64,000 nucleotides of DNA from Promethearchaeia archaeon. Its GTDB lineage: Archaea; Asgardarchaeota; Lokiarchaeia; Sigyniarchaeales; SOKP01. The stretch's first letter is position 1. Each line of letters starts with the position of its first letter. Made by a program: the position numbers and the translations under genes. The notes beneath the pieces were generated by a model that had not been told where the DNA came from, did no database searches, and worked only from the letters and a program-made list of their open reading frames with translations. The stretch spans positions 18,584-82,583 of the forward strand of contig JAWOCD010000115.1 of the NCBI GenBank assembly GCA_046483985.1. Direction: 5' to 3'. This document shows, one piece after another, positions 36,905-59,176 of the stretch.

Positions 36905-37254
36905 AATTTTTTTTCTTTAAAATATATATCTTATTTCTATTGATGTTAATTTTGCTTTATAAAAATTTAGCTTCTAATTGAGTAGAATCTTTTTCATTTG
37001 ACTTCAGTCTTAATAAATAAACTAGGAAATGACCCAATAAGGGGTAAATCAGTCATTTAATTCTATTATTACTCCCATTAATTCACAAACGGAGAAATCT
37101 AATAGATATAAGAACTCTTTAATATAACTGATTCGTATCCGTTCGATATTTAAATAGATCTGCCCTATACAGACATTTGCTGGGAGATCATCAGAAATTA
37201 GAAAATGTTGGAGCTATTGCAAAGAACAATAACACTGTAAGCGAATATTATAAT

Positions 37255-37751
37255 TTAAACATTATCCGAGTCCATCATAGTAAAAGAGTAAGGGAATACA
37301 AATATAAATAATATAGCAAGAATTATCAAGATCTGGACTCCACTAAACCAGGAGAAAGCCGAGACTTGAAGAACAAAAATCGAATCCGTCAACACGATCG
37401 AAATCAAATATCCTAAAAAGTGATTTTTAAAGCCAAGATACTCCCACCTTCCTTGGATAAAGTTGACGAACGAGGGTATGCCCATAATAAAGGATCCGAT
37501 TTGGTAGAGAAAGGTGATTACCTCAAATTCGCCAAATGCAAGAAACAGAAAGAAGAAGAACAGAGGAATTTAAAGGATCTTTACCATATTAGACGCCTTT
37601 TCTTTTTCTTATCCGCTCCCAATTGTTTGTAATTGTTTATTCCCCGATTCTTATGCATAATTAAGAGTGAGCCGAATTCTAAAGAGATAACTAAGTAATA
37701 GGACACCGTAAGGATGAGAGCTAACCCAGCCGACTCTTTTATCCTTGCCAT
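37255..37751 (-). pseudogene. Degenerate partial duplicate of the neighbouring membrane protein 37804-38856
   Basis: SYYLVISLEFGSLLIMHKNRGINNYKQLGADK aligns to SYSLVTALAFGSLGIMYKNHGISDYKQLGIDK. After a frameshift and a TAA, FVNFIQGRW...GFKNHFLGYL aligns to LVNYIQGKR...NFKSYFFGYL. Confidence 0.75.
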
Positions 37752-37803
37752 TAATTAACTCGGCGATATAATTAACAAACTGCAGGTTGTTTTTTTGCCG
37801 GTA

Positions 37804-39873: not shown

Positions 39874-40103
39874 TTCCATTCTTCTCTTAATTCTTTTTGA
39901 AATTTTACGCTATCCATCTTCCATTCTTTTTGATTTTGGAGTATATCTGACACATTTTTTGTTCCCGTTTTTCGAATAATGATTTTATCTCCCTTCAAAT
40001 CGAAAATTAATTTATCGCCCTTCCTAATTCCTAATTTATCTCTAATTTCCTTAGGAATAGTTACTTGTCCTTTTTCACTTATTTTAGAAGTACCTATTAT
40101 CAT
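39870..40103 (-). CDS. vapB: AbrB/MazE-family antitoxin (VapB)
   Basis: KISEKGQVTIPKEIRDKLGIRKGD; coupled to the PIN gene. Confidence 0.9.
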   Translation of the reverse strand: MIIGTSKISEKGQVTIPKEIRDKLGIRKGDKLIFDLKGDKIIIRKTGTKNVSDILQNQKEWKMDSVKFQKELREEWK

Positions 40104-40596
40104 GATTCATTCACCTTTTAATTCTTACATAAAATAAAGAATTCTTTACATATATGCTTTACTTCTATAGGAATAAAAACTTTTTGTCTATTGCCTTGGC
40201 CAGATCTTGCTTATTGGTTTTTTAAGTCTTTGAGAAAAGCGGGATTTCGCTGGTTTGATTATGAGAGAAGGGAAAGTTCCTAATTAACTGATTTTCAAAA
40301 TAAAGCAAAAGCACTAATTCGTCTCCATTTGATTAAGATACTCCGAAATGTTAGTTGATTTGAGAAGATTTTATCAAAATGATCCCAGACCCTCTACGAT
40401 GACAATGTTGCGGCGATAACATTAAATGAATTAATAGATTTTAACAAGAATTTTACTAAGGGTTTCGTCTAAATCAAGGACATCTTAAGATAACCTTAAA
40501 TATAACGAATAAGACTACTAAAACCATGAAAAACTTTTCGAGGAACGTTTTTCGAGGATCATGTGCGACCTGTCCAGTATGCCGAGGAACTAAATT

Positions 40597-50162: not shown

Positions 50163-50571
50163 ATACTTTTACACCTAATTTCAAAAATTTTAATTTCTAT
50201 TTTTTCGATCTATATATAATGATCTCTATATCATAAAATTAAAAGTTTTTGAATTTAAAAATTAAATCCCATCTAACCCGAAAAATGGAGAAAAAAGTAA
50301 AAAAAAAGGATGTCCTTTAAAAAGGGGGAGGAAACTTTTTCTTGTTGATTATAAAGATTGTCTACTTCTACTTTCATATCAACATTTAAGACCGTAGATA
50401 ACTGCTCTTAAAATAAACTACTCAAACCAGGAATGAAATTATTATAATATTAATATCCATAAATGTACCAGGTTAAAGACTGAAATAAAAACCAAAAAAT
50501 GATGACAAAAATAAAAGTTGAACACGCTTCTATACAGAAGTTAAAAATAAGAATAAAAAATCAGATTTCCT

Positions 50572-50733
50572 TTATTTGGGGAGTTCCTTTCTCTTTTGGC
50601 GTAAATCTTTTCCGTGGCATTTCCTGCACTTTTTTGCTTTCGGTGGATTAAGCGCACCGCATCTCCTACATACGCTCTTATTCAAAAGATGTTCTCGGGC
50701 AATCCTTTTCTTATGGGGTTCATCAATAGGCAT
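50572..50733 (-). CDS. rpl40e: 50S ribosomal protein L40e (stand-alone, not ubiquitin-fused)
   Basis: Not in the ORF track. Hand translation: MPIDEPHKKRIAREHLLNKSVCRRCGALNPPKAKKCRKCHGKDLRQKRKELPK. Confidence 0.92.
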   Translation of the reverse strand: MPIDEPHKKRIAREHLLNKSVCRRCGALNPPKAKKCRKCHGKDLRQKRKELPK

Positions 50734-50958
50734 TTTCTTTCACTTCTCAATTTTTATTAGTAAAAAGTCTATATAGTATAGAAAAAAAGGAATTATTGAA
50801 AATAAAATTTTTGGATGCAACCGCAGTACTAATAAAATTAAAATTGGATAGTATATAGATGTAAACAAAGGAATAGGAAATAAAATAAGTAATGTTAAAT
50901 TTAAATCATTACTAGAAACTTAATTTAATAGAATAATAAGCACAACAGTTGAACAATT

Positions 50959-51153
50959 TTGCCGAAAGAAATTTTTGATGAGGATCAATTTTTAGACCTT
51001 TCTAGAAGAAGCATTCATTGCCGTGTAAAAAGATTAGAAGATGTAGTAAAACTAAAACTTCGCACCAAGAAATATCTGTATACCTATAAGACGGATCCGG
51101 GAAATGCAGAAAGGCTGATAAAAGAAATTAATTGTGAAATTATCGAAATATAA
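50959..51153 (+). CDS. rpl38e: Ribosomal protein L38e
   Basis: MPKEI...F...R...KLKLRTKKYLYT. Confidence 0.9.
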   Translation: MPKEIFDEDQFLDLSRRSIHCRVKRLEDVVKLKLRTKKYLYTYKTDPGNAERLIKEINCEIIEI

Positions 51154-51178
51154 ATATTTGAATTTAAAGGAATAAAAA

Positions 51179-55563: not shown

Positions 55564-56481
55564 ATGAGCGAAAATTGGGTAGAAAATTATCTTAAGGCAG
55601 GCGAAGCTGTTATTGCGGCAAAAAGACTTGCTCGCAAAATAGTGAAACCTGGTGTTACTTTTTTAGAAATTGCGAATAGTTGTGAACAAAAAATCTATGA
55701 TTGCGGCTGTGAGCTTTCATTTCCCATTAATATCTCTTTAAATGAAATCGCAGCGCATTACAGTCCACCTATTGATGATAATACTATCGTTCCCGAACGA
55801 GGACTTCTTAAAATCGATATAGGTTCTCACTATGAGGGATATATTGCTGATTCAGCTATTACCATTAATATTGATGATGATCCTTCCCTTCAAAATTATA
55901 TAGATGCCGCTGATGAGGGATTAGAGGCCGCTATTGAGCGCTTCAAACCCGGTACGAAATTATATGAGTTAGGTGAAGCCATCGGCAATGAAATTATTAT
56001 GAAAGGATTACGACCCATAACGAATTTGGGGGGTCATGAATTGAAACGCTATAATCTTCATGCGGGCCCTTTTATCCCTAATTACAAAGAAAAGCGCCAT
56101 AATCAAGTCCTAAAACCAGGGGACGCCTATGCATGCGAACCATTTGCTACTTCTGGTGTGGGAAAAGTAGTTAATGGAAAAAATGCTTATATCTATCGAT
56201 TTGCCAAGAAAAAAAAGAAGAACATCTCATATCAGCACTTAAGTTACATGAACAAAATAGAAAAAGCGACCAAGCAACTTCCCTTTTCTCCTCGACTATT
56301 ATTGCATAAGGGTATTATTCCGAGACAGAAGATCAATCGGATTATCAATATTTTCTTGCAAAAGCAGATATTAGAAAAATACAATATATTAATAGAACGT
56401 ACGAAGGAACCTGTAGCCCAGCAAGAACATACAATTATTCTTGATGAGGATGGAGAAACCATTGTTACAACACGGGAATAA
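55564..56481 (+). CDS. map: Type II methionine aminopeptidase
   Basis: AAHYSP, DIG.H..GYIAD, NLGGH, LHAG, EPF, EHT. Confidence 0.95.
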   Translation: MSENWVENYLKAGEAVIAAKRLARKIVKPGVTFLEIANSCEQKIYDCGCELSFPINISLNEIAAHYSPPIDDNTIVPERGLLKIDIGSHYEGYIADSAITINIDDDPSLQNYIDAADEGLEAAIERFKPGTKLYELGEAIGNEIIMKGLRPITNLGGHELKRYNLHAGPFIPNYKEKRHNQVLKPGDAYACEPFATSGVGKVVNGKNAYIYRFAKKKKKNISYQHLSYMNKIEKATKQLPFSPRLLLHKGIIPRQKINRIINIFLQKQILEKYNILIERTKEPVAQQEHTIILDEDGETIVTTRE

Positions 56482-57334
56482 TAATCCGTTTCAAGATACG
56501 GTTTTTATCTTGTTATGTGCTGGAAAGGGAACTCGACTCCGAACAATTACCAAAAATATTCCTAAATCATTAATTCGGTTAAAACAAATTGGAAATAAAC
56601 CTATTCTTCAATATACAATAGAGAATTTACTGCTTCTCAGTCCAAGACAAATAATTGTGATAACTGGTTATTTATGTCAGAAAATTGATGATTTTCTAGC
56701 GAATTTTGAAAAGACCCATCAATCTGTAAAGGACAAAGTTTCAACTTTTCATGCTTCCAAACGATTTGAATTAGGACCGCTATATTCTTTCATATCAATC
56801 TCGAATAGTAAAAAGTATTTTTCTGAAGACTACAATTATTGCGTCTTACCGGGAGATACTATCTTTGATTTTTCTAAATTTCAATCTATTCAAGAACCAT
56901 TACGGGCACATATTCAAAACGAGCCAGAACTTCCTCTGGTTTTTTATAGAAAAATAATCTCTACTCGATTGGTCCAAGAATTGGATGGTAAAGAAAGACC
57001 TGGACCTCGAAAAATCGTTTCGATTTCAGAATATTGGGGAAAGGGAAGGGATCTTGTTTACTTGAAACAAATCAAGAAAAAGGAAATCCAAGGATGCAGT
57101 AAAGAGCAAATTGTAAATCAGATCATTCCTTTATTCTATTTATCATATGAATTTATTATTAAAATACAAAAGTCTATGCCGGAATACGCTGCTTCTCGAT
57201 TAACCGAAATGATTAATATGCTAATCGAAAATCAAGATGAAAAAATTAAGGCAGTAGAGATTCCTACAGATTTTCGATTTTATGACATAGATACAAAACA
57301 GGATCTCAAACGCGTAGATTTTTCGGAAGAATAA
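56441..57334 (+). CDS. Sugar-phosphate nucleotidyltransferase family protein
   Basis: LCAGKGTRL...IPKSL, GD, DIDT..DL. Confidence 0.8.
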   Translation: MMRMEKPLLQHGNNNPFQDTVFILLCAGKGTRLRTITKNIPKSLIRLKQIGNKPILQYTIENLLLLSPRQIIVITGYLCQKIDDFLANFEKTHQSVKDKVSTFHASKRFELGPLYSFISISNSKKYFSEDYNYCVLPGDTIFDFSKFQSIQEPLRAHIQNEPELPLVFYRKIISTRLVQELDGKERPGPRKIVSISEYWGKGRDLVYLKQIKKKEIQGCSKEQIVNQIIPLFYLSYEFIIKIQKSMPEYAASRLTEMINMLIENQDEKIKAVEIPTDFRFYDIDTKQDLKRVDFSEE

Positions 57335-57338
57335 AGAG

Positions 57339-57790
57339 AGACAATAGTAATTCTCCGCTTTAAAGTAGTTAGTGTCTGAATCGAGGTGCGTTTCTTAGTT
57401 CTTGACAATTAAGAATTTCCGTTTTGCTGTTATATTGTTAGAAGTTTGTCTTGCGTATCGGTATAGTGTGATAAAGGGAGATCTTTTATACAACGTGTCA
57501 GAACTCATCAAAGAACGTAGGACGTATTGAGAATTACTGTTTTGGTTATTGACGGATGAGAATTACTATGTAAATGGTAAGGATTGTACTATATTTGTCC
57601 TATAGTAGTAAGGAATTATAGACTATTTTATGTATTTGGAATAAAATGTAATGTCAAATTACTATTAATTGGATTCAGTAGTACGGAACTGAGTATAAAA
57701 GTAATCTGTTCTAATAATGTCGGTTATCTAACAGCGTATAAACTGTTTTTGTGCTAACTTAAACAATGCGCAATAGATTTACTATTGTCT
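57339..57790. ncRNA. Candidate large structured non-coding RNA (strand unresolved)
   Basis: No ORF of 60 aa or more. Terminal inverted repeat AGACAATAGTAA/TTACTATTGTCT, and at least 7 internal hairpins, most with G-T pairs on the + strand. Confidence 0.5.
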
Positions 57791-57812
57791 GTTATAATTA
57801 TAATGAATCTCT

Positions 57813-57830
57813 TATTTAAATGTTTTGTTT
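57813..57830 (-). promoter_or_regulatory. Putative BRE-TATA promoter pointing into the 57339-57790 element
   Basis: Minus strand AAACAAAACA-TTTAAATA ends 23 nt before 57790, which is canonical archaeal spacing. Confidence 0.4.
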
Positions 57831-57958
57831 TAGATTTCTAGGGATAATTATTAAAAAGCTTTTCTGCAGCAGTGGAATTCAAATTCAGATTAAGAATTCT
57901 AAATGCACACTTTACTAACCAATAATATTTATATTTTAGATTCTTTTACTAATAGAAT

Positions 57959-58351
57959 ATGTCTGAAGCAAAGATTCCCATTGAATTTAAGCTCTTTGGT
58001 GTGGGGGAATTAAAAGGGGTTTTTTTGCGCCATCTCTCTCCGATTTGTGCGGATGCTCTTTTGCGTAAGATGCCCTTTGTTCTACGGGGAAGATTTCACT
58101 TCGGCTCGAAAGATTTTTGGATTCTCCCAGGGCTCGGAATTAAAAAGGGCGTAAACCAAAAAGCCAAAAAGGACACAGAGAAAGGAGATATCTTTTATAA
58201 TCCTAAATCTGACGAACTTATTATTATATTAGAAGCAAAACAAATGCAGAATAAAATGAATAAACTCGGTGAGATTACCTCGAATTTAGATATTCTAAAA
58301 GAGGCACGGAACGGATTAAGTATGAAAATCTCCAAAAAGGAGGTAAAGTAA
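57959..58351 (+). CDS. Cyclophilin-like fold protein
   Basis: LSP....LLRKMP...EKGDIFYNP...LIIIL...NKLG. Confidence 0.6.
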   Translation: MSEAKIPIEFKLFGVGELKGVFLRHLSPICADALLRKMPFVLRGRFHFGSKDFWILPGLGIKKGVNQKAKKDTEKGDIFYNPKSDELIIILEAKQMQNKMNKLGEITSNLDILKEARNGLSMKISKKEVK

Positions 58352-58357
58352 TAAAAT

Positions 58358-59176
58358 ATGGCGGTCGCAAAAAGGCTTACGGTCGTCTTTATGTTTTTCT
58401 ATTTAGCGATTATTATCTATTTAATGCTCTTTTTTAATGTACCTGAGTTTAGACAAGCAGTTATGGAATCGCGTAGTAATGTAGCTTTAATTACAGAAGG
58501 TTCAAATTATTATTGGGCCTTGGCAATCTCATTGGGTATCTGTTTTTTAGGGTCTGCTTCGATTGGATTCCCGATTCCATTTCCTTTTGTCTTATTTTCA
58601 TTAAGCAATTCGGTATATATTAGATATTTAGATTTGTTGGGGAACTTAACCGAAGTGCTTCAGTCTGCTCCATTTTGGTTGGAAATCCTCGGTTTAGCAA
58701 TTGCAGGCGGCTTAGGAAGTGCATTAGGGGAATTTTCCGGTTATGCAGTGGGGTATGGAGCTAAAAAACTGGTAGAGGAAAAGAAATCTGGCCTTCTTAA
58801 AAATATTGATGGATTTGGAAAAGTCGTATTGGAAAACGAAGACAAAATTCCGTTTTATATATTTTTATTTGCATTAACACCCTTACCTGACGATATTCTC
58901 TTTTTACCTCTTGGAATGATGAAGTATCCCGCATGGAAATGTATTATTCCCGGCTGGTTAGGAAAGAATTTTACGACAATTTTTTATTGTGCTTGGCCCG
59001 TGTTGATCGCTTTAGGTTTTACCGCAAGCGGCATAGAACTTAATGACACTTCAAGTATCATAACAGAGGCTATCATGCTATTAGTTACCATCACTATCAT
59101 GTTTTTCATATTGAGTTTTAACTGGAACCACTATTTAGAAAAACGTAGAGAAGATAAAGCGGATGAAGAAAACTGA
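58358..59176 (+). CDS. DedA/VTT (SNARE-associated) family membrane protein
   Basis: GGLGSALGE..GY..GYG, FALTPLPDD, G..GK. Confidence 0.85.
   Translation: MAVAKRLTVVFMFFYLAIIIYLMLFFNVPEFRQAVMESRSNVALITEGSNYYWALAISLGICFLGSASIGFPIPFPFVLFSLSNSVYIRYLDLLGNLTEVLQSAPFWLEILGLAIAGGLGSALGEFSGYAVGYGAKKLVEEKKSGLLKNIDGFGKVVLENEDKIPFYIFLFALTPLPDDILFLPLGMMKYPAWKCIIPGWLGKNFTTIFYCAWPVLIALGFTASGIELNDTSSIITEAIMLLVTITIMFFILSFNWNHYLEKRREDKADEEN

Follow-up and report, generated by a model that had tools for sequence, protein, structure and literature searches.

The stretch at 57339-57790 of the window (the whole 64,000-nt stretch of Lokiarchaeia DNA analysed here) is probably a gene in its own right, present in a single copy, whose product is a stable non-coding RNA of about 452 nt that is read from the minus strand and belongs to an undescribed family. 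Taken by themselves, the presence of a real non-coding RNA gene in this gap and its assignment to the minus strand can be stated with high confidence, and the direction of reading, from 57790 to 57339, is very likely indeed on the basis of the promoter, the terminator, wobble pairs and library orientation. An initial annotation, made from the letters alone, had proposed a selected RNA structure, possibly of a new Asgard class, at this place, and this proposal is borne out by RNA contigs, covariation, synteny and the lack of an Rfam match. The coordinates of the predicted gene and its elements are given in Table 1.

Table 1. Predicted non-coding RNA gene and associated elements (positions refer to the window)
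Feature	Position	Strand	Remarks
ncRNA gene (predicted), ~452 nt	57339..57790	-	Promoter geometry, terminal helix and T-rich tail common to 60+ homologues; covariance model CM R1
RNA ends (predicted)	start at or near 57790; 3' end at or just past 57339	-	
TATA box ATTTAAATA	57813..57821	-	22 nt upstream of RNA start; part of palindrome
P1 5' arm, RNA 5'-AGACAAUAGUAA	57779..57790	-	Extendable to 57775
H2 hairpin AACAG-loop-CUGUU	57730..57747	-	Aligned position paired in relatives
Px 5' strand, RNA AAUUCU	57412..57417	-	Alignment A1 columns 119-124 with 212-217
Px 3' strand, RNA AGAAUU	57349..57354	-	Adjoins P1 3' arm
P1 3' arm, RNA UUACUAUUGUCU-3'	57339..57350	-	Extendable to 57354
T-rich tail CTCTTTATTCTTCC	57325..57338	-	After 3' arm; overlaps ntp stop codon; read as weak oligo-T terminator
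RNA-contig span	57356..57778	-	100%-identical contigs, three runs from three studies

Gene layout and reading strand

The gap is bounded upstream by an open reading frame with an NTP-transferase fold (ntp, 56441-57334, stop codon TAA at 57332-57334) and downstream by a Cyclophil_like2 frame (cyc, 57959-58351), which begins 624 nt beyond the end of ntp. Stop codons occur in all frames between the two genes and the longest open frame does not exceed 57 codons, so that the initial description of the stretch as ORF-free holds. The other sequence features described there were also recovered: AGACAATAGTAA at 57339-57350 and TTACTATTGTCT at 57779-57790 are perfectly complementary in reverse, the two arms being 428 bp apart; the end pairing lengthens to 15/16 with one T.T mismatch (12 continuous pairs, the mismatch and 3 more); the first arm lies 4 nt past the ntp stop codon; and the hand count of about 90 G to 52 C on the plus strand was computed as 91 to 52, with a GC content of 31.6% over the 452 nt. 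The stretch is present once in the 4.06-Mb assembly of the window's genome. Three other gaps of the window (36905-37803, 39880-40596 and 50163-51178) are 700-1000 nt long and contain no ORF of at least 90 codons; Rfam gave no gathering-level match in them either.

On the minus strand, the window reads ATTTAAATA, 22 nt, AGACAAUAGUAA ... UUACUAUUGUCU and then CTCTTTATTCTT, the arms as DNA being AGACAATAGTAA first and TTACTATTGTCT last. The corresponding family layout, on the same strand and opposite to both ntp and cyc, begins with (A)ATTTAAATA, which is separated by 19-25 nt (mostly 21-23) from (T)GGACAATAG..., where the RNA starts; the RNA body of 357-632 nt ends in ...CTATTGTCC and is followed by a run of 6-13 T in nearly all loci; the 5' arm is of the GGACAAUAG type and pairs with the 3' end. 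The T-rich tail of the window is weak, its longest run being TTT. The TATA box and the arm are 19-25 nt apart in nearly all of the 60+ loci, whereas the spacing between this box and the ATG of cyc varies from 94 to 654 nt.

The TATA box belongs to a palindrome, TATTTAAATA, located within 57791-57958, and a second conserved AT box lies between the TATA box and the RNA start (ATAAATATATGA in relatives, TTATAATTATAATGA in the window). The two AT boxes may together act as a bidirectional promoter, with the cyc and VTT genes on the plus strand also under its control, in which case the cyc leader would measure 70-170 nt in most loci. In one relative (locus L038 of genome G044, gap of 1171 nt), approximately 550 nt of extra sequence is found between the RNA promoter and cyc.

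The base pairs of the helices also bear on the strand. In the minus orientation, the terminal helix P1 contains 11 G.U cells, with 8 sequences at the fourth pair (U.G as an intermediate state), and only 3 A.C cells, all of them at the innermost pair. Two U.G pairs are conserved in the adjoining helix Px (20/23 and 17/23); they would become A.C mismatches if the plus strand were the RNA. In pairs common to the RNAalifold folds of both strands, G.U and A.C were counted 26 versus 18 times, a ratio that does not distinguish the strands. In addition, the P5-side adapter sits on the plus-strand 5' side in two metatranscriptome runs from two studies (X2 and X5), so that read 1 corresponds to the plus strand. 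In dUTP-type libraries, a plus-strand read 1 means a minus-strand RNA; the adapter orientation thus points to the minus strand on the assumption that the libraries, whose type is not on record, were of this kind. Against the minus strand stand the weak T-rich tail and the base composition of the RNA strand, where C outnumbers G (C 91, G 52) as is rarely the case in structured RNAs; the plus strand also has the more stable calculated fold, at -113.7 kcal/mol versus -73.1 kcal/mol for the minus strand. The initial annotation had read the RNA from the plus strand, which is contradicted by promoter, terminator, wobble pairs and adapter orientation alike, and because the RNA lies on the minus strand, the G-T wobbles, GNRA loops and G-richness that had been described for the opposite strand do not belong to the RNA.

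Terminal helix and RNA interior

Over 62 distinct homologues, P1 comprises 11 stacked pairs, of which 5 covary, and 99% of its positions are paired. Its variants in different genera include AGAC/GUCU (the window), GGAU/AUCC, GGAG/CUCC, GAAC/GUUC, GACAGUAGGC/GCCUACUGUC and GGGAAAAUAA/UUAUUUUCCC, which amounts to at least six kinds of compensatory change. The family consensus of Px pairs AGCUUUGAUU with AAUCGGAGCU. In place of the family's AGCUUU/GGAGCU, the window has AAUUCU/AGAAUU, where four of the six pairs are unlike the consensus and all six are still paired, i.e., compensation is complete. In a MAFFT alignment that was not fitted to the structure, 78% of the Px cells were paired versus 75.0 +/- 0.9 in column shuffles (0/500 reached the observed value); slid registers gave 39-53%, a control that is flattering since Px was derived from one genus. 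The position of hairpin H2 is occupied in relatives by CGGU/ACCG, ACAG/CUGU or ACAAC/GUUGU, and RNAalifold predicts H2 inside one genus. As judged from these alignments, comparative support is limited to P1, Px and H2.

Compared with dinucleotide shuffles, the full stretch folds with a z-score of -3.14 on the plus strand and -2.46 on the minus strand. When 16 nt were removed from each end, the values became -1.15 and -1.00, respectively (20 shuffles), and relatives gave mixed results. An interior z-score of about -1 indicates that the terminal helix is the source of the folding signal. Approximately ten internal hairpins had been listed in the initial annotation: the complementary words are present, but as a set they do not exceed chance at this interior z-score. 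Two of the listed stems, AACAG/CTGTT (57730-57747) and the region around TTCTTAGTT/AATTAAGAA, coincide with conserved elements, and comparative support does not extend to the others.

Searches for further conserved helices gave sparse results. RNAalifold on MAFFT alignments returned 3 pairs for the 3' domain (23 sequences) and none for the 5' domain (21 sequences), and an alignment of 8 sequences gave 4 pairs; this scant consensus is weak evidence either way, as MAFFT shifts short helices by 1-2 columns. A home-made scan for covarying column stacks found P1 alone, and a hairpin enclosing the first of two internal U-tracts of relatives was not significant (median p 0.42). Stems containing G and C (CUGG/CCAG, CCGA/UCGG, GUGA/UCAC and CCAA/UUGG) recur around this tract. 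Conserved single-stranded words include GCAUUGG, GGAGC (three copies) and UUGUCGAA, and the RNA may be just moderately structured, with such words as its conserved parts.

Most homologues (L011-L038 and others) carry two internal runs of U7-12, at RNA positions of about 95-115 and 330-345, and no internal U run of the window RNA is longer than U4. Runs of 7-12 U normally terminate archaeal transcription. The internal tracts may be functional, either as sites for Sm-like proteins or through attenuation that gives shorter isoforms. In relatives, an internal AAUAGG also repeats the 5' arm (alignment A4 columns 445-459 with 523-537); in the RNAalifold prediction its partner is CCUAU, the inner half of the 3' arm. 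This pairing makes P1 and an extended Px mutually exclusive in relatives and could constitute a conformational switch there, one that is not conserved in the window.

Distribution, expression and competing readings

The relatives compared, all of them outside the window's own genus, were located through the flanking proteins. The gene order map, ntp, gap, cyc, vtt is found in 27 of the 29 relatives' loci of the first search and is kept in most further loci, and the gap measures 468-796 nt, with one locus of 1171 nt. The RNA gene was detected between ntp and cyc in every sampled genus of one Loki-type Asgard family (Promethearchaeota). The syntenic regions proposed for comparison in the initial annotation were thus available from relatives; synteny holds and P1 covaries across them. 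No ORF of at least 45 codons, the shortest length covered by this comparison, is common to the gaps of different genera on either strand. The gaps of relatives have sequence blocks in common: BLASTN matched the window gap to locus L035 (E 7.5e-8), the GCAUUG block, H2, Px and P1 all align between the window and its homologues, and L011 has the same layout of TATA box, arm and T run as the window, which is the most divergent member seen. When the gap was searched as DNA against 40 relatives, only short chance-level matches came up, and no relatives were recovered from metagenomes with the ntp protein as query.

A covariance model of the 3' domain of the RNA (CM R1) was run over the genomes of the order. 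It matches the window at 57333-57499 on the minus strand with 59.8 bits, the window locus (L009) being part of the seed, and gives one match per genome in 84 of the 121 family genomes. One more genome (G139, with 9% contamination) has two matches on two contigs, which probably reflect two strains binned together. More divergent genera of the family are missed by CM R1; the signature of promoter, arm and terminator still finds the gene there. The RNA was not found in the genomes searched from three sister families, in which cyc is kept: CM R1 matched 0 of 19 genomes, the signature of TATA box, arm and T run upstream of cyc was absent in 14, and the promoter-plus-arm pattern was absent in 5.

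The RNA does not correspond to any known family. Rfam 15 gave no match at 56500-58600 even at E up to 10 (best hit E = 2), nothing at E up to 0.5 in 18 syntenic loci except for one chance miRNA hit, and no gathering-level hit anywhere in the window; in line with the initial annotation, no RNase P or SRP RNA was seen in the scanned region, and neither RF00373 nor a related model, including RNase MRP RNA, matched there. A full RNase P RNA (141 bits) is found on contig C85 of the genome and an SRP RNA candidate (RF01857) on contig C45 (35248-35516, 80 bits, E 4.5e-18). The idea of an RNase P or SRP RNA had also come from AAAGTCCG-like words in one relative, but these lie on the plus, i.e., wrong, strand and both RNAs are located elsewhere. 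With 80 bits, the SRP RNA stays below the Rfam gathering score of 96.5 and would be overlooked by standard annotation. RNase P RNA has a second match, a partial one (G000:C118:10-154, E 1.6e-10), where a short contig begins; either contamination (estimated at 4.8%) or duplication during assembly could explain it. A box C/D sRNA was rejected because neither the window nor the family consensus has a C box (RUGAUGA) or D box (CUGA), the 5' arm being followed by UAAAUCUAUUGCGCAUUG and the 3' arm preceded by GCGGAGAAU. An RNA excised or circularized at a bulge-helix-bulge (BHB) motif is unlikely as well, as P1 is devoid of two 3-nt bulges spaced by a 4-bp helix. No description of the RNA was found in the literature, including a 2026 preprint on prokaryotic non-coding clusters.

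When words were sampled from a 1501-nt query, 14-28% of them occurred in each of twelve salt-lake metatranscriptome runs from three studies, with 14-26% in the nine runs beyond the three that were mapped. The contigs cover 57365-57778 in run X2 (depth 17, with Illumina adapters abutting both ends), 57356-57620 and 57601-57764 in run X4, and 57373-57765 in run X5. In all three RNA runs, depth was zero at ntp (56900-57307) and on the cyc side (57818-58400), and these empty flanks argue against DNA carry-over as the source of the signal. The RNA accumulates far above the mRNAs of ntp and cyc. Between the contigs and the predicted RNA ends, 12 nt are missing at the start and 17-34 nt at the 3' end; losses of this order are usual in random-primed libraries, and the shortfall is for this reason not read as processing, the true RNA ends and strand not being readable from runs that were compared as assembled contigs. 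In run X2, seven extra letters beyond 57778 (AACCGAC) are the reverse complement of 57719-57725, which adjoins ATCTA (57726-57730), and ATCTA pairs with TAGAT (57773-57777); the extra letters are a snap-back extension of the plus-sense DNA 3' end at 57778. No back-joined contig was present in the three RNA runs, although assembled contigs can miss such joints. A DNA run from freshwater sediment carries pieces of the locus at low depth.

Several other readings of the locus were weighed against an independent minus-strand gene. A plus-strand RNA that lies in, or is read through from, the 3' UTR of the ntp mRNA and is trimmed at the terminal helix would account for the G-rich and more stably folding plus strand, for an arm that begins 4 nt after the ntp stop codon and for contigs that end just inside both arms, as if cut from a processing stem, and a T4-G-T4 tract is available 30-40 nt downstream. 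This origin is nonetheless quite improbable: the plus strand has no TATA-like box at -27, relatives have no T run after the plus-strand 3' arm and their gaps are not G-rich on that strand, the wobbles of P1 and Px would turn into A.C mismatches, and in the RNA runs ntp is without cover and read 1 is the plus strand. It is also unlikely that the RNA is a cis-acting by-product or regulator, either antisense at ntp or the arm of a bidirectional promoter for cyc-vtt. Here, the overlap of the 3' arm and terminator with the ntp stop or last codons in most relatives, as well as the palindromic TATA box upstream of cyc, must be set against an overlap of only about 0-50 nt, for which an RNA of 360-630 nt with conserved words and a covarying helix is kept; moreover, the RNA accumulates while ntp and cyc mRNAs go unseen, and sister families have cyc without the RNA element.

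GGAG-containing words that recur three times in relatives on the minus strand could suggest an mRNA that encodes at least one very small protein, but stops in all frames, the lack of a shared ORF of at least 45 codons between genera on either strand (smaller ORFs lie outside this test), the spread of lengths from 357 to 632 nt and indels of any size inside conserved blocks make it a very unlikely explanation. The least probable reading is a DNA element, such as a MITE, a replication origin with inverted boxes or an operator pair, which a perfect 12-bp inverted repeat with arms 428 bp apart in AT-rich, gene-free DNA might suggest. The initial annotation had itself named dispersed copies with target-site duplications as the mark of a MITE; the stretch is single-copy, occupies the same syntenic place across a dozen genera, i.e., in all genera sampled, and shows no target-site duplication pattern. 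Its arms change together rather than stay fixed, and a MITE, an origin and an operator were all rejected in view of this single-copy, syntenic position and of transcription as a separate unit that has a promoter and a terminator of its own.

Proposed role and known counterparts

In the minus-strand RNA gene, a BRE/TATA-type promoter (ATTTAAATA, 22-nt spacer) is positioned to start the RNA at about 57790, the first and last 12 nt pair as P1, with Px adjoining it, and the T-rich tract after the 3' arm overlaps the stop codon of the convergent ntp gene. The paired ends may protect the RNA from exonucleases, and the RNA may be the core or scaffold of a ribonucleoprotein (RNP), as RNase P RNA and SRP RNA are. 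GCAUUGG, GGAGC and, in relatives, the two U7-12 tracts would then be contacts for proteins or targets, the tracts being suited to Sm-like proteins. Stand-alone RNAs that are both abundant and several hundred nucleotides long form a small group, and the majority of the known ones do central jobs (RNase P, SRP, tmRNA and 6S). A function as scaffold or stable RNP core is offered tentatively, by analogy, and is favoured because the gene architecture, abundance and paired ends resemble those of housekeeping RNP RNAs. It is considerably less plausible, and in fact rather improbable, that the RNA forms the core of an Asgard RNP not known so far, in one version bound by Sm-like proteins via the conserved U-tracts, or that it is a new catalytic or guide RNA. 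Asgard archaea are the archaeal lineage closest to eukaryotes, and an Sm-bound version, if true, would be an archaeal counterpart or forerunner of the eukaryotic Sm-class small nuclear RNPs.

A conserved, highly expressed RNA that matches nothing described points to Asgard cell biology hidden from protein-centred annotation. For the annotation of family genomes, a gap of roughly 600 bp that appears 'intergenic' would be a gene. The gene, strand, ends and conserved words, now defined, offer a basis for designing probes and pull-downs and for searching cultured relatives.

Among known systems, the archaeal RNase P RNA (RF00373) and SRP RNA (RF01857) are likewise encoded by stand-alone, single-copy genes with a TATA promoter and an oligo-T terminator; they too have paired ends and a length of a few hundred nucleotides, far exceed mRNAs in abundance and, as is presumed for the RNA described here, are bound by protein. 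Unlike them, the present RNA has no match to either in sequence or structure, shows no P4-type conserved regions or SRP S-domain motifs in the window, and occurs in one family instead of being universal. The OLE, ROOL, GOLLD and raiA-motif RNAs are similar in being several hundred nucleotides long, lineage-restricted, abundant and found by comparative genomics. However, these are bacterial RNAs with many covarying helices, whereas the window RNA has two helices and one hairpin and an AU-rich, weakly structured interior, and the RNAs of this type held in Rfam 15 do not match the window. A long helix also flanks the mature RNA in archaeal pre-rRNA and in some C/D and SRP RNAs, and the contigs at this locus end just inside the arms; archaeal BHB processing stems have two 3-nt bulges spaced by 4 bp, whereas P1 of the window is a continuous helix. 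MITEs can also be non-coding elements of about 450 bp with perfect terminal inverted repeats, but the element in the window is single-copy and syntenic, and its arms covary.
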